DNA of 64,000 nucleotides from a virus, in IMG/VR virus record IMGVR_UViG_2974543594_000001, positions 6,679 to 70,678 of that record; one strand, given 5' to 3'. The translations under genes were made by a program, and so were the position numbers. The notes under the pieces were generated by a model. That model saw only the letters and a list, made by a program, of their open reading frames with translations. It was not told where the DNA came from and ran no database searches. Shown here in pieces: positions 11,661 through 63,202 of the stretch (within the stretch, counting starts at the first letter, position 1; every line of letters starts with the position of its first letter).

Positions 11661-11669
11661 TATCTCATA

Positions 11670-12023: not shown

Positions 12024-12029
12024 TAGCAT

Positions 12030-13142: not shown

Positions 13143-13158
13143 TCGAGGGTGATTAACT

Positions 13159-14328: not shown

Positions 14329-14345
14329 TTGAGGTTTTGACTAAG

Positions 14346-14371
14346 AGAGTGGGGAAACCCACTCTTTTTTT
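14346..14371 (+). terminator. intrinsic terminator after MCP
   Basis: 8-bp stem AGAGTGGG/CCCACTCT with a GAAA tetraloop, then T7. Confidence 0.7.
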
Positions 14372-14441
14372 ATCTAAAAAATACGATACACTTAGCTAGA
14401 CCAAAACTGGTTCCACCCAGAGTCCTAAAAGGAAAACTTCT

Positions 14442-14996
14442 ATGTCTGAACTGAATGAATTAGATGTACTGAAACAGCGTGCTGACCAATTAGGTATTTC
14501 TTACCATCCTAATATCGGTGTGGATAAACTGCGTGAGAAAGTGAATGCAGTCTTAGAAGGTAAGAATGAAAATGTATCTGAGGAAGAAACTGTGACTGAA
14601 ACCAAATCAACTACCAAGTCTGTTGCTCAACTCAGAGCTGAAGCTGCTGATGATGCTATGAAACTGGTTCGTATTCGTCTGACTTGTATGGACCCATCTA
14701 AGGCTGACTACCACGGTGAAATTATTACTGTCGGTAATGATGTAGTTGGTAACGTTAAAGTGTTTGTTCCTTACCGTGAAGAATTCTATGAAAATGGTTA
14801 TCACGTTCCGAACATCATTTATAAGTTCTTACGTGACCGTGAATATGCTTCTGTCAAAACTATTAAAGGTCCTAAGGGAGATACCCAACAGACATTTCTG
14901 GCTAAAGCATACAGTATTGAAGTACTGCCTCAACTGACTGAAGCAGAGCTGGAAGCTCTTAAAGCTCAGCAGGCTGCCTCTAAATCTATTGATTAA
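14442..14996 (+). CDS. hypothetical virion protein
   Basis: 184 aa ORF after MCP. Confidence 0.4.
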   Translation: MSELNELDVLKQRADQLGISYHPNIGVDKLREKVNAVLEGKNENVSEEETVTETKSTTKSVAQLRAEAADDAMKLVRIRLTCMDPSKADYHGEIITVGNDVVGNVKVFVPYREEFYENGYHVPNIIYKFLRDREYASVKTIKGPKGDTQQTFLAKAYSIEVLPQLTEAELEALKAQQAASKSID

Positions 14997-15007
14997 GGAG
15001 TAGAGCA

Positions 15008-15757
15008 ATGGCTGATTATGTTATTCAACCCATTACCAACGAAGACCTAACTACTAAGGTCGTTGATGGTACAGGTATCTTTGATGAGTTAATGACAGCA
15101 GCCAATGCTCATCTTACCTATCAATGGGAACAAGACCGTATTACTGGCTCATCATATGCTGAAGTATATCTGGGCCAGTTAACGGCAGTATTAGGACAGG
15201 CTGTACTCTTCCTTACTGAAAGAGATAAGACGTACCTGAATAACCTTCTGGTACAGTCGCAAATTAAATTAGCAGATGCACAGGTAGCTTTGGCTGCTCA
15301 GGATTTACTGAACAAGCAGCAAGAATTACTGAATGCTCAGAAGCAGATGGAACTGATGGAACAGCAGATTCAATTAGCTGAGAAGCAAGTTGAACTGGCT
15401 GATAAAGAGCTTCTGGTTAAAGACAAGGAAATGCAATTACTGGATAAACAGATTGCTGTTCAAGAAGCTACTGCTGATTTAACCAGACAGAAGATTAAAA
15501 CTGAGATGGCTCAGATTGCTGACTCTGTTGATGGTGTTGCTGTTACTGGTATTCTGGGTGCCCAGATTGCTCTGTATAAACAACAGAGAGATGGGTTCCT
15601 TCGAGATGCTGAGCAGAAAGCACTTAAGATTGTGGCTGATACTTGGATTACTCGTAAGACAGTGGATGACGGAACTCCACTTCCAACAGGCTTTGATACA
15701 GCTGCTGTGGATGCCTTTACGAGAAAAGTCGCAGATGGGGTTCAGGTTAATTACTAA
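15008..15757 (+). CDS. coiled-coil virion structural protein
   Basis: 249 aa. AAGGAG RBS. Long Q/L/E heptad-like region. Confidence 0.45.
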   Translation: MADYVIQPITNEDLTTKVVDGTGIFDELMTAANAHLTYQWEQDRITGSSYAEVYLGQLTAVLGQAVLFLTERDKTYLNNLLVQSQIKLADAQVALAAQDLLNKQQELLNAQKQMELMEQQIQLAEKQVELADKELLVKDKEMQLLDKQIAVQEATADLTRQKIKTEMAQIADSVDGVAVTGILGAQIALYKQQRDGFLRDAEQKALKIVADTWITRKTVDDGTPLPTGFDTAAVDAFTRKVADGVQVNY

Positions 15758-15761
15758 GGAG

Positions 15762-15781
15762 AGGGGCTTCGGCCCCTTTTT
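15762..15781 (+). terminator. intrinsic terminator
   Basis: AGGGGC-ttcg-GCCCCT then TTTT, ending about 6 nt before ATG 15787. Confidence 0.55.
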
Positions 15782-15786
15782 ACTCT

Positions 15787-48639: not shown

Positions 48640-49049
48640 TAGCAGATTTTCCTAAGACTTTTGTCATTAACTTGGATATACCAAGGCAGGTTTCTGCACA
48701 GATGTTTTTTAAGATTCCAGAGAGTATCATTCATGTTGTTATATTCATCGGGATGAACATAACGAACCAGACGTACATCACAGTCCAGAATCTCAATACC
48801 CAAAGTGAAATCCACAATGGTTCCATCAGCCATGAGACTCACGTAGTGAGCTATACACATATCTGAGTAGATAATAACTACTTCAACAACGCCTACAGCT
48901 AATCCAGTCTTTACAGCCTGAGCAGCATTGATATGGCATTTGTAGTTATACTGAGGAACAGATTTATCAGGGATTCCTACTACAAGCTTATGCTTGTAAT
49001 CTTTGAGAGCTTGCTCTCTTGCCAGTAACATCGCCTTCTTTAGAAACAT
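48639..49049 (-). CDS. hypothetical protein
   Basis: 136 aa ORF. Confidence 0.4.
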   Translation of the reverse strand: MFLKKAMLLAREQALKDYKHKLVVGIPDKSVPQYNYKCHINAAQAVKTGLAVGVVEVVIIYSDMCIAHYVSLMADGTIVDFTLGIEILDCDVRLVRYVHPDEYNNMNDTLWNLKKHLCRNLPWYIQVNDKSLRKIC

Positions 49050-49052
49050 GGT

Positions 49053-49310
49053 TTACTCCAAGTATTTTCTGAATACGCCTGCGAAGCAGGAGTCTCCCTC
49101 TTGAAGTCCATGCTCCTGACATAAGCCATGATGGTCTAATCGACAGTCATGACCGACATAATCTAAAGCATCTTGGATAGCCTGCTTTAAATCCTCTGGC
49201 AATTCGAATTCTGGTTCAGGTGGTGGTTGTTTCCATCCACATAACTGACAGTCCATACCGTCAACATAAGAACCGCATTCGGTATTTTGGCAATACAGGT
49301 AAAGACCCAT
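49053..49310 (-). CDS. Cys/His-rich small protein (putative zinc-binding)
   Basis: 85 aa. CQNTEC...CQLC and HDCRLDHHGLCQEH. Confidence 0.4.
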   Translation of the reverse strand: MGLYLYCQNTECGSYVDGMDCQLCGWKQPPPEPEFELPEDLKQAIQDALDYVGHDCRLDHHGLCQEHGLQEGDSCFAGVFRKYLE

Positions 49311-49315
49311 ATGAC

Positions 49316-49345
49316 CTCCAAAAAAATGCCCTCACAAGGAGGGCA
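49316..49345 (-). terminator. intrinsic terminator
   Basis: TGCCCTC-acaag-GAGGGCA. On the minus strand it is followed by U7 and then GGAGG for the next gene. Confidence 0.55.
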
Positions 49346-49390
49346 AAAACATCTGAAAGGTAAACTTAAAAAGATTACCCGCCACGTATA

Positions 49391-50488
49391 TTAACTGTTT
49401 ACGTGAATCAGTTGTCCGAACTTAACTTCTGCTCTTGGGTTATCAAGGCAAACCCAAATAACATTAGGTACAGGTGCTTTCTCCATTTGACGACAGTCTA
49501 AATCAGAGAAGACAACTATCAGTTCGGGTTTCTCTTTAGCTGCGTGGTCATACACGCAACCTAATGAGGTACCTCCTCTACCAGTGAATTCACATTGACT
49601 GATATCATCTCCTTCCTCTAACTCATACACATTATGAATCTTCGTATCGAAGGTGCAGACAGTAATCCTTTTTGGATTAAGCTGTTTTTTAATGGCATGA
49701 ATTTCACTGATGTATACAGTGAACTGTGCATCAGTAACTGAACCAGAGATATCAGTATAAAAAATGATATGCTCTAGTCCTTCAGAGTTTAATGAAGGAA
49801 GATAGATATCTGGAAGAAAACGTCTATTGACCTTCTTCCACGAATAATCATTTCGAGTCATCTCATTAACAAAGTTTCTGAGAATGTCATTCCACGGCAG
49901 TTTTGGATTTAGTAAATCCTCTAGATAGGCTCGTATGTCTCCGGGAATATCGCCGTATTGACCACGTTGAGACGCAGCAATACTGCTTCGGATAAGCATA
50001 GAGTCAATCTGAGTATTGACCTGTTCATCCGATAGACCTTGGTTTTTTTTAATATCTAAACCAAATCCACCAGAAGGTATTGGAGGGGGATTACTGAACA
50101 GCAAATCGTAGATTTGTGGAGCACTCATACCATCGTACTTGTGGTCCATCAATCCAGACTCCATCGCATAGCCAGCGTCATCCAACATATTATTTATGTA
50201 GTAGTCGCAGGCATAGTTCCAGATGGTTGGATTTCTTCCCGATAGTCTCGACATGTGTTTTAACACAACATGCCAGGTTTCATGGGCGAGAAGTGTCACC
50301 CTCATCGGCCTGGATAAATCCATAAAGAACTTTGGATTTATTTCTATACTCAACCCATCAGTACAAGCTGTGGGTACATCATCATTCCAGTTCAACTGAA
50401 GTGAGCAGAACATAGAACAGATGAAAGTATTCTTTCTTATCGAGAACAAATCTACTTTTGCTAAATCTAACGCTTTATCTTTATCCAT
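49391..50488 (-). CDS. VWA-domain protein with N-terminal HExxH metallopeptidase-like domain (DUF2201-like)
   Basis: 365 aa. HETWHVVLKH in the N-terminal half. C-terminal half has a VWA-like DxSGS motif (DISGS). Immediately downstream of the MoxR ATPase. Confidence 0.55.
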   Translation of the reverse strand: MDKDKALDLAKVDLFSIRKNTFICSMFCSLQLNWNDDVPTACTDGLSIEINPKFFMDLSRPMRVTLLAHETWHVVLKHMSRLSGRNPTIWNYACDYYINNMLDDAGYAMESGLMDHKYDGMSAPQIYDLLFSNPPPIPSGGFGLDIKKNQGLSDEQVNTQIDSMLIRSSIAASQRGQYGDIPGDIRAYLEDLLNPKLPWNDILRNFVNEMTRNDYSWKKVNRRFLPDIYLPSLNSEGLEHIIFYTDISGSVTDAQFTVYISEIHAIKKQLNPKRITVCTFDTKIHNVYELEEGDDISQCEFTGRGGTSLGCVYDHAAKEKPELIVVFSDLDCRQMEKAPVPNVIWVCLDNPRAEVKFGQLIHVNS

Positions 50489-50499
50489 GCAGGGTCTCC

Positions 50500-51516
50500 T
50501 TAGAGCATACCTGCACCAGACTCGTTAGCGTATTTCATCACCCAATCCTGAACTTCAGGAACTTGAACAATGGCAGGCCGTGCTTTAACAGCACTACTTA
50601 AAGTTACGATTTGGAATTCAACCGGCAGTTTATTGATAAACTTCATCAACTGAGCACCGTTATTGGGGTCAATCTTAGAAGCAACATAACCAGCATATGC
50701 GTATTTAATGTCTGGTCTGTTCTCAATTTCAATGCCTTCTGGGTCTTTGAGAATTTCTTCGATAGTCTTAATCTTTCCATAGATTGAAGTATATTCGATG
50801 AACTCTCTCGCAGCCCCCGGACCAATTATCCCAGAGATAATGCCAAAGTCATTATCAATGGTGAGTTCTAAGCCATGAGAAACACGGCTGGTAAAATCCC
50901 AAGTACGAGGACATGGGAATGGGTTTTTAAGGTCCTGTGGGTTGAATTTATGGAACAGGTCTTCCTTAAACATTAAGAAAGATAGGATGCGATGGTCGAT
51001 GGCATTATCCAATGCCCAGATTTTCCAATCATCGAAGTTCGCTTCCAGTTCCAAATTGACGATACGTGACAGAGTTGCACTACTCATTGTAGTGGTGATA
51101 GCTCCATCAGTATCTTTGTTACCTGCCGCTGCAATATATACGTCAGGATGAAGTTTGGTTTGACCAACCATCCCATCCAATAACTTATACGCAGCAGCTT
51201 GAACAGCTTTTGGCGCTGTATTCATCTCATCGAGGAACAGCAGCCAGCCGTTATAACCTTCAGGTATTTTATCCCCTAAGATGGGGATATCTTTTGGTGG
51301 GTGATAAACCGAACGCCCGTTTTCAATATTAGGAAATCCGAGCAAGTCAGTTGGGTCACACTGACCTAAGCGTAGGTCAATAACCAGCAACTTAAACTCT
51401 TTGGCTATCTGACGAATAATCGCAGATTTACCAATGCCCGGACTACCTTTGATAAACGGGACCAATTTAGCGCCGAAAGCACGCTCTATGGCACGCTTAA
51501 TAGCTATTGGTCTCAT
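50500..51516 (-). CDS. MoxR/CbbQ-type AAA+ ATPase (AAA_5)
   Basis: 338 aa. Walker A is GSPGIGKS. Walker B is LLFLDEMN. Paired with the VWA protein. Confidence 0.65.
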   Translation of the reverse strand: MRPIAIKRAIERAFGAKLVPFIKGSPGIGKSAIIRQIAKEFKLLVIDLRLGQCDPTDLLGFPNIENGRSVYHPPKDIPILGDKIPEGYNGWLLFLDEMNTAPKAVQAAAYKLLDGMVGQTKLHPDVYIAAAGNKDTDGAITTTMSSATLSRIVNLELEANFDDWKIWALDNAIDHRILSFLMFKEDLFHKFNPQDLKNPFPCPRTWDFTSRVSHGLELTIDNDFGIISGIIGPGAAREFIEYTSIYGKIKTIEEILKDPEGIEIENRPDIKYAYAGYVASKIDPNNGAQLMKFINKLPVEFQIVTLSSAVKARPAIVQVPEVQDWVMKYANESGAGML

Positions 51517-51531
51517 ACATCACCTACCCGA

Positions 51532-51858
51532 TTAAACTTTGAGAAGGCGGCGAGAATCCATCAGGAATGGAATTACGTCACCATCTTCATCGACGATGTG
51601 GACAATGCAATCAAAAATCATTGCTGAGTTTGGGGTATTGCTGGCACCACCTTCGAGGTCCCAACCTCTTTTAGGGTTGGCAAGAATTTCGGTGACAATA
51701 CCCGGACGGTCAACTGTCGGAAAACGGAAGAACCCTTCATTAGCAGGGTTGATGATGACGATATCACCTACTGACACCGGCTGGTGAGATACCACCATTG
51801 CATTGAATGCATTACGCAGTGCATCAATCTTTTCTAAACTGATTTCTGGCTTAGACAT
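51532..51858 (-). CDS. hypothetical protein
   Basis: 108 aa ORF directly upstream of the MoxR gene. Confidence 0.4.
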   Translation of the reverse strand: MSKPEISLEKIDALRNAFNAMVVSHQPVSVGDIVIINPANEGFFRFPTVDRPGIVTEILANPKRGWDLEGGASNTPNSAMIFDCIVHIVDEDGDVIPFLMDSRRLLKV

Positions 51859-51878
51859 TTTTGTTTACCTCTTTCAGA

Positions 51879-51905
51879 TGAAAAATAAGGAGCCAAATGA
51901 CTCCT
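51879..51905 (-). terminator. intrinsic terminator
   Basis: AGGAG-(8 nt)-CUCCU then UAUUUUUCAUC on the minus strand. Confidence 0.4.
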
Positions 51906-51909
51906 ATAC

Positions 51910-51926
51910 AACGCACGGAGTGCGTT
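51910..51926 (-). promoter_or_regulatory. GGA-triloop hairpin AACGCAC-GGA-GTGCGTT overlapping stop of 51925..52335
   Basis: 7-bp stem with a 3-nt loop and no U-tract. Confidence 0.25.
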
Positions 51927-52335
51927 AGGCTTCCGGGTTTAAGAAATAGATGCCCGGTAAACCAACATCGATGGTGTATTGAGATTCTTGCCGGACAATC
52001 TGGGGAGTAGTGCCAAATTGCATGTAGAAATGCGCCAAAATCACTGAAGCTTTTGAGGTTTCCATCATGACAATATGTTCCGGCAGACCATCTTCCAGCA
52101 TGTACTTTTGAATTTGTTCGATTACAGCAGCACGTTCAGCAGCTTCAGGAGACATGGTTTTTTTAGCCATTTCAGCTATAAAGTTCATGCCACCTTCCAT
52201 ACCCAGCTTAGAACCGTATACAGCAGTCAGAGTACGAGCACAGTTAATAAATGGCTCTTCTTTTTCACTGTGCAGCCATGACAGTACAGTCATGATGGTT
52301 TCTTTGCTTGGCAGTACTACTTCAGTCTTTTCCAT
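51925..52335 (-). CDS. hypothetical protein
   Basis: 136 aa ORF. Confidence 0.4.
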   Translation of the reverse strand: MEKTEVVLPSKETIMTVLSWLHSEKEEPFINCARTLTAVYGSKLGMEGGMNFIAEMAKKTMSPEAAERAAVIEQIQKYMLEDGLPEHIVMMETSKASVILAHFYMQFGTTPQIVRQESQYTIDVGLPGIYFLNPEA

Positions 52336-52645
52336 CTGTTTTACCTTCAGATTGATTGAGAATTTGAGTTAACAGCTTACTGATACCTTCTCCGAGTTCA
52401 TCTACTCGCTCAGCTATCTGCTGTAATGAAGTGAGTTCGCTTTCACGAATCTCTTTGTTGATTAAGAATTTGGCTAAGCTATTAAAGTTCTGGAAGTAAC
52501 CACAGTTAGTTAACTGGTCCTGACCTGCTTTAACGCCACTCTTAATCTTTTTACGTTCAACCAAAACAAACGTGTAGTTGTTGGACGAAACAATATATTT
52601 ATCACCCAACTCTACGTTAAGTTTTGAACCTGATTCTTTAGCCAT
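52322..52645 (-). CDS. hypothetical protein
   Basis: 107 aa. AGGAG RBS. Confidence 0.4.
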   Translation of the reverse strand: MAKESGSKLNVELGDKYIVSSNNYTFVLVERKKIKSGVKAGQDQLTNCGYFQNFNSLAKFLINKEIRESELTSLQQIAERVDELGEGISKLLTQILNQSEGKTDGKD

Positions 52646-52654
52646 CTGGTTCTC

Positions 52655-52682
52655 CTAAAAACAAAGCCACCCGGAGGTGGCT
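52655..52682 (-). terminator. intrinsic terminator 20 nt upstream of next start
   Basis: AGCCACC-uccg-GGUGGCU then UUUGUUUUU. Preceded by a second hairpin AGCGCC-gta-GGCGCT at about 52695-52709. Confidence 0.55.
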
Positions 52683-52708
52683 CTAACCAAGGATAGCGCC
52701 GTAGGCGC

Positions 52709-52882
52709 TTAGACAGGATAAGTTTTATCGAGACACTTGTTTAAGTTATGGCGATTGATGTACTCACGACGCTCTTCTTGTAGACGAGCTATTTCAGCTT
52801 CGTGCCCAACAATCGCTTTATCTATCTCAGCGATATTATGCTTATGTCTGTCCCAATCGAATTTGTTCATTGGCTCAGTCAT
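52709..52882 (-). CDS. small protein translationally coupled to dut (not in the ORF track)
   Basis: 57 aa: [57 protein letters not shown]. Its ATG overlaps the dut stop (TAATG). Confidence 0.35.
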   Translation of the reverse strand: MTEPMNKFDWDRHKHNIAEIDKAIVGHEAEIARLQEERREYINRHNLNKCLDKTYPV

Positions 52883-53331
52883 TATTTAGTTCCTGTTGAA
52901 TTAAAGCCGCCTTCACCACGTTCAGTAGCTTCAAAAGAATCTACTACAACGAATTCAGGACGCTCTACAGGGACGATTACCATTTGGGCAATACGGTCAC
53001 CAGGGTTAACTGTGAAAGGCTCTGTAGAGCGATTCCACAAGCTCACCATAAGCTCTCCCTGATAGTCACTATCAATGAGGCCAGTGAGGTTACCTAACAC
53101 GATACCGTGTTTGTGACCTAAGCCAGAACGAGGAAGAATCATTGCTGCTTTTGATACATCTTCCAGATGAATAGCAATACCAGTTTCAACCAGCTTGGTT
53201 TCACCCGGAGCAAGAGTAAATGGCATAGCTACGTTAGCTCTTAAATCTACACCAGCAGAGCCATCAGTAGCTGGAGCTGGGATACACATTGAAGGGTTTT
53301 TAAAAACGAGAGTTCTTAGCTTAACTTTCAT
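52882..53331 (-). CDS. dut: dUTPase (trimeric)
   Basis: 149 aa with all five dUTPase motifs: [35 protein letters not shown]. Confidence 0.85.
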
Positions 53332-53380
53332 AAGAGTTCCTGTTTAACTTTGTAGAAATGCCATAGCATCCTATAGCATT

Positions 53381-53412
53381 TATAAAAAATTAAAATGCCC
53401 TCCGAAGAGGGC
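53381..53412 (-). terminator. intrinsic terminator after SPFH gene
   Basis: GCCCUC-uucg-GAGGGC then AUUUUAAUUUUUUAU on the minus strand. Confidence 0.6.
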
Positions 53413-53418
53413 ATAGAA

Positions 53419-54279
53419 TTACTTAAATGATACGAACGGGGTAACACTACCCTGCGTCATGTAAGTTGGCAGAGCACCGTTCCATTTCTCAATAGACCGA
53501 AGGTCTTTCATCTGAGGATAGCGGTTCAGGGCTTCACCTACTTTAGCGATAGCTTCTGCTTCAGCATTTGCCTTCATGATAACGGCATCAGCTTCTGCCT
53601 GTGCTTCTTTACGCTTAACGTCAGCCGCACCGTCAGCCTGAGCACGAGCCATGTTCGCTTCAGCTTCACGCTGCAATACTTCCTGAGTACGTTGCAGAGT
53701 GGTCTGGTTCGCAGTCACTTTCGCGTTGATAGAGGCGATAACGGTTTCCGGGTATTCCGGCTTCCCAACGTAGGACAGGCTGATGACGTCGATACCAATC
53801 GGAGCCATCTCTTCCTGCATTTCTTTCAGCGCAGCATCCAGAAGGTCAGCTTTACCGCCATCAATGAACTTGTCGGTAGTCATACGACTAGCCAGACGGT
53901 TCAGGCTATCAGCGATTTTCTGCTTCATGTCTGTATCGGTAATGTCATCGATACCCTTACGATATGTTTGGAAGACAGTAGTCACTTTGGTCGGATTGAC
54001 CTTGTAAGCCATACCGATGTGATAGCCGATGGTTGTACCATCCGACATTTGGAAGTTAAACGTATCGTCATACGTCTTCATCTGTTTGAAGGTCGGGAAC
54101 GTATAGACGGTTGTGTTCCAACCAGTCCAATAACGACCGACACCGACGACTTCGCCTACGCCTTTATCATCGCCCAGCTTGTTCACTTTAATACCGACGT
54201 GACCAGGTTCTACACGGTCACAGCCAGTTAAAGTTAATGCACCTAATACCAGTGCAACTGTCAAAAATACTTTTTTCAT
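53419..54279 (-). CDS. SPFH/band-7 (stomatin-prohibitin-flotillin-HflK/C) lipoprotein
   Basis: 286 aa. Signal peptide plus lipobox LTGC. SPFH core (VEPGHVGI...). C-terminal Ala/Glu-rich coiled coil. GC-rich island. Confidence 0.65.
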   Translation of the reverse strand: MKKVFLTVALVLGALTLTGCDRVEPGHVGIKVNKLGDDKGVGEVVGVGRYWTGWNTTVYTFPTFKQMKTYDDTFNFQMSDGTTIGYHIGMAYKVNPTKVTTVFQTYRKGIDDITDTDMKQKIADSLNRLASRMTTDKFIDGGKADLLDAALKEMQEEMAPIGIDVISLSYVGKPEYPETVIASINAKVTANQTTLQRTQEVLQREAEANMARAQADGAADVKRKEAQAEADAVIMKANAEAEAIAKVGEALNRYPQMKDLRSIEKWNGALPTYMTQGSVTPFVSFK

Positions 54280-54461
54280 GGGAAATATTTCCTAATCAGA
54301 GGTTTAAAAATACGGTACAGACATACCGGATAAAGGACTGTAATAGCGATACCGCTTAACACTGACATGGTATCTTTTGCAGAAATCATGGCTGGTAGTA
54401 CCCCAACATATAAAATAAGAGTAACGATTAGGGTGGCTACTAAATAGAAGGCAAGCTTCAT
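54276..54461 (-). CDS. small two-TM membrane protein
   Basis: 61 aa. Overlaps the SPFH start by 4 nt. Confidence 0.45.
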   Translation of the reverse strand: MKLAFYLVATLIVTLILYVGVLPAMISAKDTMSVLSGIAITVLYPVCLYRIFKPLIRKYFP

Positions 54462-54739
54462 TTATCGGTTCCTTTTGGATTGATAGCCGAATTTGGAAGA
54501 CAGCTGATACTGTAGCTATCACTGGTATAACTAATAATTTTTCGAGTTCCGGGTACATAAAGTACCCAGCAAGTTACTTCAGCATCATCATCATGAATCC
54601 GTTGAATATCGACTTTCTCGAACGTTGGATTGATACCAGAATCGCTGCCGTAGGCAGCCGATAAGAAACCAACCATAATTGCAGATAGAATTACGGTAAG
54701 CAGTGCTACATCGAGCACTACTCGTCTATAACTACGCAT
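54458..54739 (-). CDS. single-TM membrane protein with small beta-rich C-domain (possible NfeD-like partner of SPFH)
   Basis: ATG at 54739 (M15 of the track ORF). One TM helix, then about 60 aa soluble domain. The NfeD idea rests on layout only. Confidence 0.35.
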   Translation of the reverse strand: MRSYRRVVLDVALLTVILSAIMVGFLSAAYGSDSGINPTFEKVDIQRIHDDDAEVTCWVLYVPGTRKIISYTSDSYSISCLPNSAINPKGTDK

Positions 54740-54862
54740 ATGTAATCCTCTGGATGCAGAAGGACAGAGATATATCTCCATCCATCCCAGACATAAATCT
54801 TGATAGATTCATCAATGAAGACGTTATGAATGGGGTAGATATTTCCATCCCAGGCATACATC

Positions 54863-55210
54863 TTAGTGAAGGGTTTTAGGTTCTTCGCCCGAATAGGCTT
54901 CAACCTCACCTTGGTATTCGGCTGTGGTTGGGATTGTTGGGTCTGAGCATTCATACCAGTATCCATCTTCAGCTTTCCAGAAGAGCCATTTACCTCTAAG
55001 GTCTCTGGCAATAAGGTCGTGGTTAGGGGCATCACCCGGAATTGGGCTACGGAATGTAACATCAGCGATATCGACTAACTCATCGACACCTGATTGTTCA
55101 TGCTGTACCCAAACCTTGTCGTAATAGAATGCTTTGATAATTACGTTAGACCCATGACCTTCAGGGTCTTTGATAAATTGCATTCTCATCATTAAACCGA
55201 TAGTAATCAT
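54863..55210 (-). CDS. hypothetical protein
   Basis: 115 aa ORF. Confidence 0.4.
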   Translation of the reverse strand: MITIGLMMRMQFIKDPEGHGSNVIIKAFYYDKVWVQHEQSGVDELVDIADVTFRSPIPGDAPNHDLIARDLRGKWLFWKAEDGYWYECSDPTIPTTAEYQGEVEAYSGEEPKTLH

Positions 55211-55590
55211 TAATCCATTCTCCCAATTAATCTCGCTTCGCCATTGACCGTATACACGGTCATGGCTCGCTCGTATTGCCAGAACTTGATATCAAGCCCT
55301 TTAGTGTTATTCAGATAATAAACAGCAATTGGATATTGCGGTTCATCCCCCGGATAGGTTAGTAAACCATTATTGAATTTGGATTCAGTTTCTGAAGGGA
55401 GCATAGGCTCCCCGTATGAGTAGATTTCCCAAATCCTGTGACCTACATCATCTTCATTTTCAGAAGACAAGACAGCACGATTAACAATCTCTGGTATGTA
55501 CCCGAGAGAGTCACGTATACGGTCACGGTTAATACCTACGTAATGACCTGTTGGGTCAATATCGATAGTTACAGCCGTGAAAATAGACAT
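55210..55590 (-). CDS. hypothetical protein
   Basis: 126 aa ORF. Confidence 0.4.
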   Translation of the reverse strand: MSIFTAVTIDIDPTGHYVGINRDRIRDSLGYIPEIVNRAVLSSENEDDVGHRIWEIYSYGEPMLPSETESKFNNGLLTYPGDEPQYPIAVYYLNNTKGLDIKFWQYERAMTVYTVNGEARLIGRMD

Positions 55591-55598
55591 AGTTTCTC

Positions 55599-56837
55599 CT
55601 ACGAAAGCATATAATTACTTTGACGGATATATTTAGACAGGTTGTTAGACAGCTTAGCGACAGGGATACGCTTACCAGATATCTGAGATGCAATAGCAGA
55701 CAGCATGTTGCTATCAGCAATCTGTGCAAAGATATCGATGTAGTTCTGACGTACATGGTTCATGTACAGAGGATGACACTTAAAGCAATCATGGATTGCA
55801 ATCAGTGCAAATGGCTTATGAGCCAACATCTTCTCGATGATTTCAATGAGTTCTCTTCGAACCCAATGAGGAATCATGTGAACATTGAGGTGGTCAATAA
55901 ACTCAATCAGAACAGCAGATACAAATTTATGGGATTCAGTTAATTTAAGAGCCTGTGCAAGCCTTGTATCATCTACTGAATAGTTGACGATACCTTTCGT
56001 ATTAGAAGCCGTCAGAAGCTCATACACACGCTGTACTTTGAGCAAATCGTAGTTAGCACGACGATTCATCTCACGAACAATCATCCCATCTACAGAGTGA
56101 ATGACATTCGCTGCAAGTGACAGACCAGCTTTCTGACCTTGGTTAACCCAATAGCGGTGAGTGAACGAGCTATTCAGCTCATTAACTTCAAAGCTATCTT
56201 CCATTGGAACCATGACTTTAACTACAGCATTGAATCCATCTGGAAGAGTCCAGTGATGTTGTAGAGCATTTGCCTGCCATAAGGCAATCAAGTCATCACG
56301 GAGCATGTTTGCACCTGGAGCAATGATTTGAACCATCTCATAGAACTTCTGAAGCTCTATGGTGTTCTCACCAAACAGGTTTACAGGATTAGCTCTGGAC
56401 CCATAGAAATGGGTCATAGTCGCATCCTTGGTATGAGAACGTTCAATCTTGTCCAGTTTGCCATCCAGTAAGTCACCCATGACTTTATAGCCATCGGTGT
56501 ATGCATCATGACGTACATCAGGATTAACCATGTTCACAGTCTCTGCTGTGACTTTACAGCCTGTCAGTGCTGCCATGCACTGTAGACCAGATGCAGTAGC
56601 ATCCATACCTACCAGATATCCTGTAGGCAGTCCTGCCTTGGTATCTTCATAGCACAACTTACCTGCGTAGAATTGTGCAGGTTCATCTGCATCATCCACC
56701 AAACCAGATAAGTTATCTTTATTTGCTTCGAACCAGTTTAACCGGTCTTCAAACAACTCCTTGTCTAAACCAAAGGAGTTAGCAATATCTAATTTGATAT
56801 ACTGGAACGGAGTGAACGTCTGCATTTTGAGTCTCAC
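55599..56837 (-). CDS. phage RNAPII large subunit (N4 gp16-like; C-terminal half of a T7-like RNAP)
   Basis: 412 aa. GMDATASGLQCMAALTG resembles T7 DGSCSGIQHFSAM (motif A). THFYGS is motif B-like. IAIHDCF is motif C. Confidence 0.8.
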   Translation of the reverse strand: MRLKMQTFTPFQYIKLDIANSFGLDKELFEDRLNWFEANKDNLSGLVDDADEPAQFYAGKLCYEDTKAGLPTGYLVGMDATASGLQCMAALTGCKVTAETVNMVNPDVRHDAYTDGYKVMGDLLDGKLDKIERSHTKDATMTHFYGSRANPVNLFGENTIELQKFYEMVQIIAPGANMLRDDLIALWQANALQHHWTLPDGFNAVVKVMVPMEDSFEVNELNSSFTHRYWVNQGQKAGLSLAANVIHSVDGMIVREMNRRANYDLLKVQRVYELLTASNTKGIVNYSVDDTRLAQALKLTESHKFVSAVLIEFIDHLNVHMIPHWVRRELIEIIEKMLAHKPFALIAIHDCFKCHPLYMNHVRQNYIDIFAQIADSNMLSAIASQISGKRIPVAKLSNNLSKYIRQSNYMLS

Positions 56838-57043
56838 TTATTAAGTTGAGAGAAAGTTTGGATAATTTTATCTGCGTAATACTTTTTAGTTTGAGGCTGT
56901 AAAAGCCAGCAGCCCATACAATGGAACTCACACTTACCCCAATCAGCTATATTGAGATAATTACCTTTGCAAGCTGCTGCTGTATTATTTGATACAGCCC
57001 AATATCTTAATTCTGACAAAATAATTAAAAGTTCCTTATTCAT
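56834..57043 (-). CDS. small Cys4 protein, MNxELIxIL paralog family
   Basis: ATG at 57043 inside track ORF 56834..57220. MNKELLIILSEL...C-x11-C-x3-C-x2-C. Confidence 0.5.
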   Translation of the reverse strand: MNKELLIILSELRYWAVSNNTAAACKGNYLNIADWGKCEFHCMGCWLLQPQTKKYYADKIIQTFSQLNK

Positions 57044-57272
57044 CAGGAATGATTCCCAGCAGCCTCCCTGCTGAGTCCAGACCAAAGATGGTCTGTTTAA
57101 TTTCATCCTCTGACATATAGAACAATGCACATTTAGTTTTGTCGTGATTCTCACCACAGAACTTTTCACATGCAGGATGGGTACTACAGAAGTGAGTTTC
57201 CAACTCATCCGGGATATCACGTAACAACAGAGTGATTTTGATGAGTTGTTCTGGTTTAGATAATTCAGCCAT
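57036..57272 (-). CDS. small Cys-rich protein, distant member of the same family
   Basis: 78 aa. ELSKPEQLIKITLLL N-terminus and a C-x5-C-x3-C...C pattern. Confidence 0.4.
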   Translation of the reverse strand: MAELSKPEQLIKITLLLRDIPDELETHFCSTHPACEKFCGENHDKTKCALFYMSEDEIKQTIFGLDSAGRLLGIIPDE

Positions 57273-58195
57273 TATTCCTCCACTGGAACGAGTTCTTTAT
57301 CAGCCAACTGAAGTATGGCTTTACGATAAGTATTACCCTGATAGGACACATGGTACCCCTGGCAATAAGTACGACCACGTTTGTCATACTTGTGAGTCAG
57401 ATAAAACCTGTTTCCTTCGTTAATTAACATGGCAAATACCTTCATGGATTCACGTTCCATTTTCAGGAACGATTCCACTCGTGCTTGCCATTCATCATGA
57501 GTTTCCTCACTCTTTGGTGAGTCCAGATGCTTACGGTTATCACGAATATTTCGGATAACACGGTCATCAAGTGCAAACGCTACTGAATTAAATCTGTTGA
57601 TATTATCCAGACAGATATCCAGTTCATGATGATTGTTCTTCAGGATTAGAGAATCCCATTCAATAGATAGATACCCACTGCCTTTGTTATCTTTAACAGG
57701 TCTTGGTGGGACTACCATTGGAGGAAGATACTGATACTGATTGATGAGTTTGAGAGTTTTTGGTTCAAGCTGGATACGACTAACCAATTCCATTGAACCA
57801 GTGTTACTGAGCTTGGCTGGAATTACATCTACCAAATCTACGATTGCTGCTAAACCAATAAGTTCTCCAGCAGTTCGTATGGCTTCTTTCTGAGACATGT
57901 TTTTAATCATGCCTGAAACCATACCAACTATCTGGGTGTACTTGGCTACACCGAACTGAGCTAATGAACCAGCTACATCGATATAGAAATCTTCAAATAT
58001 ATCTGAATCCAGAATGGCTAATCGACGGTTCTTACTTTCAAAGTAATCACCCATCTGCCATTCTTTGGCTGCCTCTACTGCCTTATTAACTAGCGCCATA
58101 ATATCTGGTGACTCTTTTAATTCTTTTCTTATGAGGTCACGAGCTTGATGTTTTGAATACATAGTTTCAATGAGGAGTTGAGTGTCATAATTCAT
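57272..58195 (-). CDS. phage RNAPII small subunit (N4 gp15-like; N-terminal half of a T7-like RNAP)
   Basis: 307 aa. YDKRGRTYCQGYHVSYQGNTYRK matches the T7 RNAP DxRGR...PQGND region. Confidence 0.75.
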   Translation of the reverse strand: MNYDTQLLIETMYSKHQARDLIRKELKESPDIMALVNKAVEAAKEWQMGDYFESKNRRLAILDSDIFEDFYIDVAGSLAQFGVAKYTQIVGMVSGMIKNMSQKEAIRTAGELIGLAAIVDLVDVIPAKLSNTGSMELVSRIQLEPKTLKLINQYQYLPPMVVPPRPVKDNKGSGYLSIEWDSLILKNNHHELDICLDNINRFNSVAFALDDRVIRNIRDNRKHLDSPKSEETHDEWQARVESFLKMERESMKVFAMLINEGNRFYLTHKYDKRGRTYCQGYHVSYQGNTYRKAILQLADKELVPVEE

Positions 58196-58431
58196 GATAT
58201 GGCTTCCATTGATTTATGGATTTGAGCGACGAAGCTATCGTCGGGATTGTGCATCCTGTCATCACTTAAAGGACAACATTCGCAATATACGTTTGGGCAT
58301 CTAAACGTTTTACATATTTCATCCTTTGGTTTGTAATCCTCATTCTCGTATAGTCTTAATATCCCTATAAGAATGATTATGAGTTCTTGGTTCATGGACA
58401 CCTCAATAGGTGCAGACAACAAACCTGTCAT
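58192..58431 (-). CDS. small Cys-rich protein, MNxELIxIL paralog family
   Basis: MNQELIIILIGIL...CKTFRC...CECC. Confidence 0.5.
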   Translation of the reverse strand: MTGLLSAPIEVSMNQELIIILIGILRLYENEDYKPKDEICKTFRCPNVYCECCPLSDDRMHNPDDSFVAQIHKSMEAIS

Positions 58432-58906
58432 CTAACAATGGTTCGATACGTTTCTTAACGTCTCTCCACTGAAGTTCTCCAGCACCACATCCCGGTCGAG
58501 GCAATACAACTTTCTGCCAACCATATTGGTTAGCCAGTTGAACCAACTGTCTGCATGAACGTTCAATCAAATCGATTTTAGCTTTACATGCCCAGCCTGG
58601 GATTGTCTGACCTTCCGGGAAGAACTTATGCTTAACAAAGTTTGTACCATCACTGATTTCAGTGATTGGTTTAACTGGAAACGATACTACCCAGATACCA
58701 TTGTGAGTTAGTAATGCATGTACATTATTGCCTTCCTGCGCAATCTTAAGTCCCAGCACTTTATCTAAGCCCGGAACTACCATACGCATTTGCTTGGCAA
58801 TACCTGCACCCATTACAGCAGCACCATTACTTTTTACAAATCCATTGGTTGTAATGCATACGGCATCACAATCCATCTCAAGGATATTGCCTTTGGCTTC
58901 TAACAT
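58403..58906 (-). CDS. Macro domain protein (ADP-ribose binding/hydrolase)
   Basis: 167 aa. GNILEMDCDAVCITTN...AAVMGAGIA and the C-terminal LPRPGCGAG diphosphate-binding loop. Confidence 0.6.
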   Translation of the reverse strand: MLEAKGNILEMDCDAVCITTNGFVKSNGAAVMGAGIAKQMRMVVPGLDKVLGLKIAQEGNNVHALLTHNGIWVVSFPVKPITEISDGTNFVKHKFFPEGQTIPGWACKAKIDLIERSCRQLVQLANQYGWQKVVLPRPGCGAGELQWRDVKKRIEPLLDDRFVVCTY

Positions 58907-58938
58907 GATTACCTCTGATTGTTGAATTCCACCCCTAA

Positions 58939-58951
58939 CAGCCGAAGGCTG
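58939..58951 (-). promoter_or_regulatory. C-GAA-G triloop hairpin CAGCC-GAA-GGCTG, candidate vRNAP hairpin promoter
   Basis: 5-bp stem and GAA loop on the template (+) strand. About 33 nt upstream of the Macro gene start. No U-tract. Confidence 0.4.
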
Positions 58952-58972
58952 AGGAGCGAAGCGACAGAAAAA

Positions 58973-59203
58973 CTAGAACGTCTGAATAACTTTATGAAGA
59001 CAGAATATATAGATATTTTCAGTTAAATCTTTTCTGGTAAAGTAGCAATTATCACATTGAACACCTGAGCATTTAGGGATTCTATGTAATCTCATAAGCC
59101 TGCATAATTCAGGTTTACTCTCGATGAATATAATTCCTGAGCTTGAAGTATATTCAACCCTATGACATAGGGATTCTATTATTTTAATTAGTTCCCTATT
59201 CAT
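58973..59203 (-). CDS. small Cys-rich protein, MNxELIxIL paralog family
   Basis: MNRELIKIIESLC...CSGVQCDNC. Confidence 0.5.
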   Translation of the reverse strand: MNRELIKIIESLCHRVEYTSSSGIIFIESKPELCRLMRLHRIPKCSGVQCDNCYFTRKDLTENIYIFCLHKVIQTF

Positions 59204-59385
59204 AGTATTCTTTCACCTAATTCAAGAAATTTAGTTATATAAAATTTTTCTGAGGTAAATACTTTTTTCATTAAAGGGCAGGAATCACATTCAACACTAT
59301 CACAACTAAATAAATCTTTAGTCTCATGACATAGTTTTTCTGTACTACGAATAGCTCTAAGAATAACTATCAATTCATTATTCAC
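59200..59385 (-). CDS. small Cys4 protein, MNxELIxIL paralog family
   Basis: GTG start. MNNELIVILRAI...C-x8-C-x4-C-x2-C. Confidence 0.45.
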   Translation of the reverse strand: MNNELIVILRAIRSTEKLCHETKDLFSCDSVECDSCPLMKKVFTSEKFYITKFLELGERIL

Positions 59386-59557
59386 AAGAAATACCTATTA
59401 CATATCTTATGCCCATTATGTATTCAGTAGGTCCAGATAAGATGCAATATGGGCATCTAATTTTTCTGCACTTTGGATTATTAAAACTATTTAAGCAGAT
59501 GTTATAATTCTCCTTCTTAGATATCTCATTAAGAATAGTTAATAATTCTTTATTCAT
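59378..59557 (-). CDS. small Cys4 protein, MNxELIxIL paralog family (not in the ORF track)
   Basis: 59 aa: MNKELLTILNEISKKENYNICLNSFNNPKCRKIRCPYCILSGPTEYIMGIRYVIGISCE. GGAGAG RBS. Confidence 0.5.
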   Translation of the reverse strand: MNKELLTILNEISKKENYNICLNSFNNPKCRKIRCPYCILSGPTEYIMGIRYVIGISCE

Positions 59558-59724
59558 ATTATTCTCTCCCCAAATTGAATTAAGTGGTATGCATAATTAT
59601 CAATATGTTTTCTATCAATACAACAATTACGACATGATATTCCAGCACAATTTACATCTTTAATTTTATAACAAAGATGTTTATCCAAAATGGATGAGAG
59701 AATAATAATTAATTCTTGGTTCAT
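59554..59724 (-). CDS. small Cys4 protein, MNxELIxIL paralog family (not in the ORF track)
   Basis: 56 aa: MNQELIIILSSILDKHLCYKIKDVNCAGISCRNCCIDRKHIDNYAYHLIQFGERII. Stop overlaps the next ATG (ATGA). Confidence 0.5.
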   Translation of the reverse strand: MNQELIIILSSILDKHLCYKIKDVNCAGISCRNCCIDRKHIDNYAYHLIQFGERII

Positions 59725-59733
59725 ACATACCCC

Positions 59734-60000
59734 TTAAAAGGGCATGGTACTTCCAATGACTACACTGAAAATAGCATCCCTGAGAGTTTTGAAATAACGT
59801 GTACCAACATAGTACATGTTCTTTTTATTAACAGGGCGCTTGAGAATGTATGCTGATGTACCATTAATGTGGACACCCCATAATTTCTCTTCACGACTGT
59901 AAGTCACTGTATACTCAGGAACAAATCCCAGATTAACAGTTCTTACTTTACTGGTTTCTTTCACTTTCTTTGACATATTGATATCCTCTTGGATTGACAA
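59734..60000 (-). CDS. hypothetical protein
   Basis: 88 aa basic protein, unrelated to the paralog family. Confidence 0.4.
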   Translation of the reverse strand: MSIQEDINMSKKVKETSKVRTVNLGFVPEYTVTYSREEKLWGVHINGTSAYILKRPVNKKNMYYVGTRYFKTLRDAIFSVVIGSTMPF

Positions 60001-60044
60001 CTATCTAACAAGACATTGATATTGGACTACCAATATCGATAGCC

Positions 60045-60269
60045 CTATTTATAGAGTCTTTTATTAGTAACTATTATTTGATTGGAATATCCAAATACTT
60101 CTTTAATACCTAAAGGACAATGGTCACATCCTCTTTTTGTTCTACACCATTCTAATTTATCAAATAGTATGTACTCACAGAGTTCATCTATTGGACCTAT
60201 ATCATGTGCCATTCGAGATGTAGCTTTTAATCTCATGGCTCTGAGTATTTCTATTAATTCAGGATTCAT
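60045..60269 (-). CDS. small Cys4 protein, MNxELIxIL paralog family
   Basis: MNPELIEILRAM...C-x10-C-x5-C-x2-C. Confidence 0.5.
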   Translation of the reverse strand: MNPELIEILRAMRLKATSRMAHDIGPIDELCEYILFDKLEWCRTKRGCDHCPLGIKEVFGYSNQIIVTNKRLYK

Positions 60270-60483
60270 TTAATACTCTACTGGTTTTAGATACACCTGA
60301 TGGATAGTTACTTTCTTGTTCAACAGATGCAAATATTGGGCAGTTATGGCAACTGACATGAGCGCATCTTGGAATAGAATCCATATTATCCATATCGCAT
60401 ACAGTCCTACATAAATCATCTTTGGTTTCTCTGTAGCTGCTATTTACTATCGAATAGATTATTTGAGTTAATTCATTATTCAT
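60259..60483 (-). CDS. small Cys-rich protein, MNxELIxIL paralog family
   Basis: MNNELTQIIYSIV...CRTVC...CAHVSCHNC. Confidence 0.5.
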   Translation of the reverse strand: MNNELTQIIYSIVNSSYRETKDDLCRTVCDMDNMDSIPRCAHVSCHNCPIFASVEQESNYPSGVSKTSRVLNES

Positions 60484-60868: not shown

Positions 60869-60896
60869 AAAAAATAAAGGGAACCCGAAGGTTCCC
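60869..60896 (-). terminator. strong intrinsic terminator after GC-rich 143-aa gene
   Basis: GGGAACC-uucg-GGUUCCC then UUUAUUUUUU on the minus strand. Confidence 0.65.
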
Positions 60897-60904
60897 AATA
60901 TCGA

Positions 60905-61336
60905 TTACGATGCCAGTGCATTCAGAATCGCACTGACTGCGCTGGTGGATGCGGTATGCTCGGTCTGCTCTTTACGGCGATAGAGCTGAACCTGCAACTT
61001 CGGCAGCTCCTGACCGCTACCAGCTTCCAGTTCACCACCCATTTTGACCAGAGCTTTCAGCAGCTCATTACGAGCAGCAGCCTGGTTGTTCCAGACTTCG
61101 TTGTTACCACGGATAACCAGCTCGCTCATGGTATCCAGCGGCAGGCCATACGGCAGAGACAGGAACGTATCCACCATATCCCCGTTTTCATCAGGCATCG
61201 GAACGGTTACGCCGATGTTGATGAAGAATTCAGCTTGCGGACGGTCGCCAGACTGCTGACGATTTCCGTTACCCTTACCACCCAGAGCTGCGCCGATGAT
61301 AGAACGAGCTTCGTTAGAGTTGTTGATAGTAGCCAT
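60905..61336 (-). CDS. hypothetical protein on GC-rich island
   Basis: 143 aa. Host-like GC and codon usage. Flanked by upstream GAA-triloop hairpins and a downstream terminator. Confidence 0.5.
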   Translation of the reverse strand: MATINNSNEARSIIGAALGGKGNGNRQQSGDRPQAEFFINIGVTVPMPDENGDMVDTFLSLPYGLPLDTMSELVIRGNNEVWNNQAAARNELLKALVKMGGELEAGSGQELPKLQVQLYRRKEQTEHTASTSAVSAILNALAS

Positions 61337-61455: not shown

Positions 61456-61833
61456 TTAGTACCGGAAGATAAAGACTGGTTTACCCAGCTTGGTCATGTA
61501 GTCAATCATGTGCTTAGTACCACGGGATTCACCATCCCAGAATGCTACCAGCACATCAGCTACATCACCCATGTCTTCATTACGAATGAAGCCTGCACGT
61601 CTAGGCTCTGACTTCCAGTCAGCAGGGAACTTATGGATAGGTAGCTTGTAGTGATAGTACCAAAGGTTAAACCCTGTGATATCAGTACCACGAGCCATAC
61701 CACACACCAGTTCTGAATCATCTGCGATGCTACCATCCATAACTAATTGCTTGATGCATGAGTCCATGTACACCATGTCGGTGAAGTCCCTTCCACCGGC
61801 TACGATTACTTTCAAAAGACCTCCTGAATACAC
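61456..61833 (-). CDS. DUF2493-like (SLOG superfamily, Rossmann-fold) protein
   Basis: 125 aa. VIVAGGRDFTD...GMARGTD...FPADW...AGFIRNEDM...VLVAFWDGESRGT matches the DUF2493 block order. Confidence 0.55.
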   Translation of the reverse strand: MYSGGLLKVIVAGGRDFTDMVYMDSCIKQLVMDGSIADDSELVCGMARGTDITGFNLWYYHYKLPIHKFPADWKSEPRRAGFIRNEDMGDVADVLVAFWDGESRGTKHMIDYMTKLGKPVFIFRY

Positions 61834-62890: not shown

Positions 62891-63202
62891 TTAGTTTGAA
62901 TACTCTTCTATGAGCTTGATAAGTATGTCTCCATGACATGCTTTAGGCTTACAGAAACAACCTAATGTCTTACCTTTAAGCTCAAGTAGTTGTAGATATA
63001 GGTCAGGCTCCTGATGTAGTCTCTGACGTATGTACTGCTCGTACATTGCAATGCATAATTCTCTGCCATATGCTTGAACTGTATAAGGATTTCCCCATAC
63101 ACTACCTCTGCCGATATAGACATCGTATGGTTCCTTGTACTTGTTGACTACACGAGTGGATGGTTCTGGAATTGAACCAATGATTGGTTTGATGATTCCC
63201 AT
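62891..63202 (-). CDS. DUF4326 family protein
   Basis: 103 aa. YIGRGSVWGNPY and C-terminal GCFCKPKACHGD match DUF4326 hallmarks. Confidence 0.5.
   Translation of the reverse strand: MGIIKPIIGSIPEPSTRVVNKYKEPYDVYIGRGSVWGNPYTVQAYGRELCIAMYEQYIRQRLHQEPDLYLQLLELKGKTLGCFCKPKACHGDILIKLIEEYSN

Follow-up and report, generated by a model that had tools for sequence, protein, structure and literature searches.

The DNA analyzed here, a window of 64,000 nucleotides, belongs to Klebsiella phage KpCHEMY26 (NC_049467 / MN163281; Schitoviridae, Humphriesvirinae, Pylasvirus), with which it shares 100% identity; subtracting 6,678 from a position in the phage record gives the position in the window. Between ∼53 and ∼64 kb, where the minus strand carries every gene, lies an N4-type early region, and within it an array of small proteins with four conserved cysteine residues (Cys4 proteins) that is the subject of this report. 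The first-pass annotation of this DNA had described at least nine such paralogs of 56 to 79 amino acids (aa), all beginning with M-N-x-E-L-I-x-I-L. The nine open reading frames (ORFs) were found where they had been placed, all on the minus strand, and eight of them constitute one family, whereas the ninth (57036-57272) fails the family profile. The eight members, referred to below by their lower coordinates, are given with the E values of the leave-one-out search described after the list.

60259..60483, minus strand: member, 74 aa (MNNELTQII...); E 3.4e-10; variable lineage, only in KpCHEMY26 and contig L019
60045..60269, minus strand: member, 74 aa (MNPELIEIL...); E 1.1e-5; Pylasvirus-only lineage, dN/dS 0.92-0.98
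59554..59724, minus strand: member, 56 aa; E 3.3e-8; core "...GERI[IL]" lineage
59378..59557, minus strand: member, 59 aa; E 3.5e-7; variable lineage, in KpCHEMY26 and MY01, missing in Pylas
59200..59385, minus strand: member, 61 aa, GTG start; E 1.9e-10; core "...GERI[IL]" lineage; modeled with AlphaFold
58973..59203, minus strand: member, 76 aa (MNRELIKIIESLC...); E 3.6e-7; core lineage
58192..58395, minus strand: member, 67 aa, internal start; E 3e-9; core lineage, hypervariable middle
56834..57043, minus strand: member, 69 aa (...QIIQTFSQLNK); E 4e-4; core lineage

The alignment of these eight proteins contains nine invariant positions, namely M1, N2, E4, L5, I8, and the four cysteines. 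A profile hidden Markov model (HMM) was built from seven members at a time and run over the complete six-frame translation of the window (1,209 segments). The omitted member was always recovered at rank 8, directly after the seven training members, with E values ranging from 4e-4 to 2e-10, and the best non-member segment reached E=0.16; the members thus detect one another far beyond chance. Neither the remainder of the window nor the 6.7 kb by which the record extends beyond it contained further members. For the 58192 ORF, an internal Met codon at 58395 is the most likely start, yielding 67 aa, because this start has a GAGGTG ribosome-binding site, creates the family N terminus, and corresponds to the short form annotated in phage Pylas. 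With this restart, and with the ninth ORF dropped, the length range becomes 56 to 76 aa; two members are indeed shorter than 60 aa (59 and 56 aa). Two of the eight genes are correctly annotated in the RefSeq/GenBank KpCHEMY26 record and six are uncalled (within 58192-58395, 58973-59724, and 60045-60269), and at 60259-60483 the record has just a short ORF of 126 nt.

The ninth ORF, also on the minus strand, encodes 78 aa, starts with MAELSKPEQLIK, and has the cysteine spacing C-x5-C-x3-C-x8-C. It was rejected as a family member on the basis of its match to the family profile (E=1), an hhalign probability of 1.2%, and its assignment to a PHROG of its own, PHROG 22821, which it matches over its full length (E 1.6e-51). 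The gene is placed between the two RNAPII subunit genes and has a ratio of nonsynonymous to synonymous substitution rates (dN/dS) of 0.06; its product is 68-97% identical over six orthologs from family-bearing genomes, including the distant contigs L013 and L015. The protein was present in every family-bearing genome examined that has a readable region between the RNAPII subunit genes, and N4 and KP8 are without it. It may be a lineage-specific RNAPII-associated factor.

Cysteine site and predicted fold

Across 251 unique sequences (143 clusters at 65% identity), in which mean column identity is 17-25%, the four cysteine columns are 99-100% conserved. In this wider set of sequences, the spacing runs C-x(4-18)-C-x(3-5, rarely up to 10)-C-x2-C, commonly within the motif ...LC...C-x-G-[VI]-x-C-x-N-C-[PIL]-[LIF], and the cysteines are flanked by the N-terminal MNxELIxIL helix and a C-terminal Y..QI helix. 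This invariance supports a single metal site on which the four thiols would converge. Zinc is the default metal for a cytoplasmic Cys4 site, and the bound metal is most probably Zn(II). The isoelectric points of the members span 4.7-10.2.

The 59200-59385 member was modeled by AlphaFold2 from a 144-sequence alignment, with a mean predicted local distance difference test score (pLDDT) of 78 and a predicted template modeling score (pTM) of 0.53. Helices were predicted at residues 3-14, 18-22 (beginning at the first cysteine), and 49-60, the remaining cysteines falling in the intervening loops, and the first ten residues were the most confident part of the model (pLDDT 87). A shallower alignment of 69 sequences gave a model too weak to rely on (pLDDT only 61), and a Foldseek search of the PDB with that model found nothing. 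A profile search of the PDB returned only a RING finger (E=6), which was dismissed since the aligned cysteines would fall in different zinc sites of the RING. Neither fold search retrieved a zinc ribbon, a treble clef, or another known zinc-finger fold. The family shares with these folds the presence of four cysteines in a small protein, but the zinc ribbon or treble clef suggested by the first-pass annotation is not supported: there is a single C-x2-C knuckle (the last cysteine pair), and the model has no strands or β-hairpins. The predicted structure is best described as a helical hairpin stapled by a Cys4 site.

Distribution and turnover of the family

With a profile of the eight window members, 65 members were identified in the early regions of seven sequenced Humphriesvirinae: eight in KpCHEMY26, seven in Pylas, eight in MY01, eight in Pollock, 12 in FSL SP-058, ten in Shigella phage B2, and 12 in As2. 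N4 and KP8 (Enquatrovirinae) yielded zero members, even after three profile iterations. In a larger set of 12 genomes we counted 126 members, at 7, 8, 8, 8, 8, 10, 10, 10, 11, 12, 12, and 22 per genome. The largest expansion seen is that of the N4-like metagenomic contig L013 (logan SRR26282644_30351, 67.5 kb), whose 22 members are packed into 6.6 kb (9618-16261) and make up 6.4% of the contig, as compared with 2.3% of the genome for the family in KpCHEMY26. An exhaustive HMMER search of 1.84 billion representative proteins provided 132 clusters at 50% identity (E<=1e-3), nearly all of 52-93 aa and matched over their full length. Among 50,697 deposited phage genomes searched by tblastn, the family was restricted to Humphriesvirinae (17 records). 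Distant metagenomic members also occur in N4-like early regions, along with the Pfam families Phage_N4_Gp2, N4_GP8, and RNA_pol.

Outside N4-like phages we found just two multi-module proteins, located in unrelated phage-like contigs: P0155 (291 aa, L010 8001-8876) and P0186 (670 aa, L012 8001-10013). These proteins contain two or three Cys4 modules of the form LC..C-G-G-[IV]-x-C-x-x-C-[IL]-L..R..F, alternating with short regions that give sub-threshold KOW/SH3-like Pfam matches. The cysteine module is therefore an autonomous domain that also exists as a repeat domain. N4 gp13 (L007 3966-4151) and a KP8 segment (L009 9681-9902) encode a different small protein, with the spacing C-x-C-x11-C-x2-C, directly upstream of a macro-like gene; these were rejected as relatives of the family (E 0.014 against 11 proteins for gp13 and E 0.11 for the KP8 segment).

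The family had been called unrecognized, and the searches agree. Pfam contained no family at E<=1 save one spurious GH113 match, NCBIfam provided no match, and none of 39 members was matched by the PADLOC models of anti-phage defense. The members also match none of the Pfam models tested for particular known identities (WhiB-like, Ogr/Delta, DksA/TraR, and N4 gp8, PF25713). Only PHROGs of unknown function contain the same proteins: 7 of the 8 window members match phrog_16571 (E 4.7e-4 to 1.2e-14) and the eighth matches phrog_32354, so that together with PHROGs 14146 and 28062 one family is split into four unnamed groups, with neither the Cys4 motif nor the expansion noted. Full-text searches of the literature found no description of the family.

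A presence/absence matrix over the 12 genomes resolved 51 lineages, 4 of them core and 47 genus- or genome-specific. The core lineages, each present in 10-11 of 11 Humphriesvirinae-type genomes, comprise the two members that directly precede the large and the small RNAPII subunit genes, respectively, together with the ...GERI[IL] group and the MNRELIKIIESLC group. In pairwise comparisons of KpCHEMY26 with MY01 or Pylas, the members had dN/dS values of 0.15-0.98, with most at 0.15-0.5, the estimates being noisy because they derive from only 56-76 codons. Among the neighbors, the two RNAPII subunit genes had values of 0.06-0.07, the macro-domain gene ∼0, and the gp2-like, SLOG, and gp8-homolog genes 0.04-0.14. 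Within orthologs, the N-terminal helix was the least diverse part (0.11) and the surroundings of the cysteine site the most diverse (0.29-0.35); in member 58192, the middle is 47-70% identical to its Pylas counterpart and the ends 87-100%. The description of a rapidly diversifying array is accurate as to turnover, variable copy number, and evolution faster than that of conserved neighbors, but less so for the four old lineages, which account for five of the eight window genes and whose positions are conserved across genera; most of the turnover falls in the remaining lineages.

DNA identity between paralogs is almost nil beyond the first codons, the only repeat found between paralogs of one genome being one of 33 nt at 79% identity. 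The expansion is for this reason considered old, and a recent duplication was rejected. Unit turnover can be read at two loci. The Pylas gene of 61 aa consists of the upstream region and ATGAATAAAGAATT of the KpCHEMY26 59378 gene fused to the rest of the 59200 gene, which is read from the sequences as the loss of one unit, or its gain in KpCHEMY26, through crossover within the MN(K/N)EL codons. At the 60259 locus, identity with Pylas and MY01 ends after ATGAATAATGAA and returns at the MNPELIEI start of the next paralog. An allele replacement was rejected here, since contig L019 holds both neighboring paralogs in tandem, and KpCHEMY26 and Pylas/MY01 each kept one, so the relatives differ by loss of different neighbors. 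All 126 copies have intact reading frames and all four cysteines.

Adjacent genes overlap at several junctions of the array. The earlier description of the junctions as ATGA or TAATG was roughly right, in that ATGA (4 nt) is found at three sites (59554-59557, 59200-59203, and 58192-58195), but other overlaps are of 8 nt (ATGAATAA / GTGAATAA; 57036-57043 and 59378-59385) or 11 nt (60259-60269). For 40 of the 65 members, the upstream ORF terminates within the first 11 nt of the member itself (ATGA, ATGAATAA, and similar). Because the conserved start ATGAAT(A/G)A holds TGA in one alternative frame and TAA, TAG, or TGA in the other, a unit stops any upstream ORF that is read in one of these two frames. 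Ribosome-binding sites are present ahead of the members, and the C-terminal "GERI[IL]" codons of one lineage encode the Shine-Dalgarno sequence of the next gene. These sites and the tight coupling support translation of the members.

Early-region context

The other features of the region, all on the minus strand, are as follows.

60905..61336, minus strand: N4 gp2-like single-stranded DNA-binding RNAPII cofactor, the upstream boundary of the array; Pollock ortholog annotated "N4 gp2-like"
60879..60896, minus strand: terminator-like hairpin and T-run, between the gp2-like gene and the array
59734..60000, minus strand: homolog of N4 gp8 (the N4 inhibitor of host DNA replication); PF25713 N4_GP8, E 1.4e-27, 96 bits versus a cut-off of 25
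58403..58906, minus strand: macro-domain (ADP-ribose-binding) protein, a non-member inside the array; PF01661, E 2.6e-4, 21.3 bits versus a cut-off of 22
57272..58195, minus strand: RNAPII small subunit (N4 gp15-like); Pollock ortholog annotated "N4 gp15-like"
55599..56837, minus strand: RNAPII large subunit (N4 gp16-like); PF00940, E 5.2e-16; annotated start 56825
63918-63902, 63244-63232, 61448-61432, 61394-61380, 58951-58939, and 53506-53494, minus strand: candidate hairpin promoters of a virion RNA polymerase (vRNAP), from a motif scan

In the direction of the minus strand, the gp2-like gene is followed by the terminator-like hairpin, two small membrane ORFs, members 60259 and 60045, and the gp8 homolog; then by members 59554, 59378, 59200, and 58973, the hairpin at 58951-58939, the macro-domain gene, and member 58192; and finally by the RNAPII small subunit gene, the PHROG 22821 gene, member 56834, and the RNAPII large subunit gene. 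The RNAPII small subunit gene is always immediately preceded by member 58192, with an ATGA overlap, and the RNAPII large subunit gene always by member 56834. The gp8 homolog sits within the array without being a family member, and RefSeq calls it (59734-59976) a hypothetical protein. PF26984 is matched by genes syntenic to the gp2-like gene in relatives; the window protein itself has no Pfam match at E<=0.01. The G+C content is 0.357 across 58001-60000, the core of the array, versus ∼0.40-0.44 in the rest of the window.

In N4, the early products gp1, gp2, gp15, and gp16 derive from transcription by the injected vRNAP at hairpin promoters (PMC4496689). We scanned the window with a motif templated on the annotated early promoters of KP8, a stem of 5-7 bp and a TTC loop followed by (G)GTGGA. 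The minus strand gave six matches, all within 53-64 kb, as against 0.115 expected, and the plus strand gave none; the positions of the sites are conserved in Pylas, MY01, Pollock, SP058, B2, and As2 (Pylasvirus, Pollockvirus, and Ithacavirus). The pair at 61448-61432 and 61394-61380 is located upstream of the gp2-like gene, a position kept across the three genera. The hairpin at 58951-58939 (CAGCC-TTC-GGCTG then ..GGTGGAA), in the gap ahead of the macro-domain gene, is kept in MY01, and that at 53506-53494 is doubtful, as it falls inside an SPFH gene. By analogy with KP8, the six hairpins are likely vRNAP early promoters of Humphriesvirinae. A scan for sigma-70 promoters was uninformative (10 found versus 29 expected). 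The early location proposed at the outset was upheld: the array is bracketed by gp2 and gp15/gp16 homologs, interleaved with a gp8 homolog, and downstream of conserved vRNAP-type hairpins. The array is very probably expressed early or early-to-middle, as its synteny with N4 would suggest.

Possible functions of the family

The interpretation that we favor, with moderate confidence, is that the family consists of early-expressed, metal-stapled binder mini-proteins that act on host functions or defenses, with a repertoire remodeled by unequal crossover at the shared 5′ joint. Each member would be a cytoplasmic mini-protein of 56-76 aa in which an amphipathic N-terminal helix (MNxELIxILxxI) packs on the C-terminal helix (Y..QI[IH]..), with the loops between the two helices held by one four-Cys metal site. 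The genes would be expressed early post-infection as translationally coupled strings in the N4-type early region. The helices and cysteines would provide a fixed scaffold; the linker, the loop between the first and second cysteines, and the residues between and just after the second to fourth cysteines would form a variable surface that may let each paralog bind a different macromolecular target, with host proteins to be shut off or components of host defense being the likeliest targets. Unequal crossover at the shared 5′ codons would remodel the repertoire, and the same joint would double as a frame-independent stop/restart signal. A role in host takeover or anti-defense, as the first-pass annotation had supposed, is plausible from the genomic context; nothing specific in the analysis favors its further suggestion that members bind RNA polymerase or the clamp loader. 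In a more ambitious version, for which we have a good deal less confidence and which we treat as tentative, the array is a self-diversifying phage library of metal-stapled mini-binders, with a fixed scaffold, a hypervariable surface, and an ATGAAT[A/G]A / MNxEL joint, in which each unit neutralizes a different host defense or housekeeping protein. If that version is true, the joint permits the gain, loss, or exchange of whole units in any upstream reading frame, and the array represents a new class of modular counter-defense system as well as a natural small-binder scaffold.

Several observations weigh against host-directed binders. No homology links the family to any target or activity. The dN/dS ratio stays below 1 in every member, which does not establish positive selection. 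Raised values were also obtained for other small accessory ORFs in the vicinity (TM_60513, 0.34-0.42; orf54863, 0.48), so the family is not alone in evolving fast. The timing of expression rests on synteny with N4 and on promoter-like motifs, and the sequence would accommodate an iron-sulfur cluster as well as zinc. In addition, four lineages are stable, and two of these are always translationally coupled to RNAPII subunit genes, which fits a phage-internal role at least equally well. That role is the substance of another explanation, in which the proteins serve the phage's own gene expression, either as cofactors or regulators of middle transcription by the heterodimeric RNAPII and gp2 or as zinc-finger nucleic-acid binders for a temporal switch, with the host not being the target. 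The coupling of two core members to RNAPII genes and the co-occurrence of the PHROG 22821 protein point in this direction; the lack of members in N4 and KP8, the range of copy numbers, and the diversity of charge do not, and on balance we regard this explanation as unlikely, though it is the strongest of the alternatives.

The remaining explanations appear far less probable. Ligation of an iron-sulfur cluster by the four cysteines, allowing a redox- or NO/O2-responsive action of the WhiB type, is compatible with their invariance and with a C-x4-C-x2-C core that is often followed by Pro. No Pfam or NCBIfam iron-sulfur family matches, however, and the G[VI]WGG turn of WhiB is absent from the members, whose spacing is C-xn-C-x(3-5)-C-x2-C; the WhiB motif, C-xn-C-x2-C-x5-C, has the reverse order, and the spacing of the family fits no iron-sulfur family known to us. 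We consider such a cluster improbable. The near-invariant nine-residue N terminus on otherwise divergent small proteins could instead act as a targeting signal, as does the sequence that directs T4 internal proteins to the capsid, with the products packaged and injected as anti-defense factors. This is very improbable given that the genes are in the early and not the late region, and that the N-terminal helix, with its pLDDT of 87 and conserved hydrophobic positions, looks structural rather than like a cleaved tag. Furthermore, mass spectrometry of virions of Shigella phage B2, which has ten members, identified only structural proteins and vRNAP and no family member, although small proteins can be missed by this method (PMC11654681).

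Recombination junctions at conserved codons, one member near neutrality (dN/dS 0.92-0.98), and the large differences in copy number between genomes would also be expected of a largely selfish or neutral array, whose cassettes multiply via a recombinogenic shared 5′ end while most copies have little function. The retention of intact frames and four cysteines in 126 of 126 copies and the dN/dS of 0.15-0.5 for most members run counter to this scheme, and the low DNA identity among paralogs indicates copies that are old and maintained rather than recently amplified; we give it very little credence. Least probable of all are precursors of ribosomally synthesized and post-translationally modified peptides, which, like the prochlorosins, would combine a conserved leader with a variable Cys-rich core, despite the conserved N terminus, variable remainder, and many tandem copies. 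No radical SAM, LanM, or YcaO enzyme is annotated in positions 1-49,000 of the record or in the early region (49,001-58,276, ∼9 kb, were left out), and there is no cleavage motif of the GG/GA type. The invariant cysteine positions and C-terminal helix denote a folded domain, and the same module is found inside proteins of 291 and 670 aa.

Two comparable kinds of system are already known, hyperplastic early regions and small zinc-binding phage factors. T4-type hyperplastic early regions include internal-protein loci with a shared N-terminal targeting sequence and undergo PeSL-mediated cassette shuffling. The array resembles them in its small variable genes, in cassette exchange via short conserved boundary sequences, and in the placement of a conserved N terminus on divergent bodies. 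It differs in that all Cys4 cassettes belong to one protein family and that the joint is inside the coding sequence (the MNxEL codons) rather than in a promoter stem-loop; unlike the T4 internal proteins, moreover, the family was not found among the B2 virion proteins (PMC11654681). N4 gp8 and other N4 early ORFans share the genomic compartment and size class of the members, but gp8 has no sequence relationship to them, is single-copy, and is without the Cys4 motif, and N4 is without the family. The small C4 zinc-finger factors of phages or plasmids comprise Ogr/Delta (C-x2-C-x22-C-x4-C), DksA/TraR (C-x2-C-x17-C-x2-C), and the zinc-binding anti-sigma factors (H-x3-C-x2-C), which act via protein-protein contacts with the transcription machinery; the members are similar to these in size (60-80 aa), in having four metal-ligand residues, and in helical content. 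What is new is the expansion of a single family to 7-22 copies, an apparently unmatched fold and motif, and a recombination joint within coding sequence.

Phages encode their host-takeover and anti-defense proteins chiefly in early regions, and most of these proteins are single-copy ORFans and hard to study. With 51 natural variants in 12 genomes, a core/variable split, and turnover that can be read from sequence, the family offers a tractable system in which to ask how a lytic phage tunes its early arsenal to Enterobacteriaceae hosts and whether 7-22 paralogs map to distinct targets. Interest would be more modest if the function were RNAPII-tied housekeeping. The family has been overlooked by current annotation in phages considered for therapy of Klebsiella, Salmonella, and Shigella infections.

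Further genes were observed in these early regions. In the window, a macro-domain protein (58403-58906) and a SLOG/YAcAr-like protein (61456-61833), both below the Pfam cut-off, are accompanied by a DUF4326 protein (62891-63202); the first two suggest nucleotide or ADP-ribose signaling that could bear on counter-defense. Pylas has an HNH homing endonuclease (L002 6584-7096) between the member 58192 ortholog and the RNAPII small subunit gene, which KpCHEMY26 and MY01 are without, and contig L017 has an HNH gene downstream of a truncated RNAPII large subunit gene.

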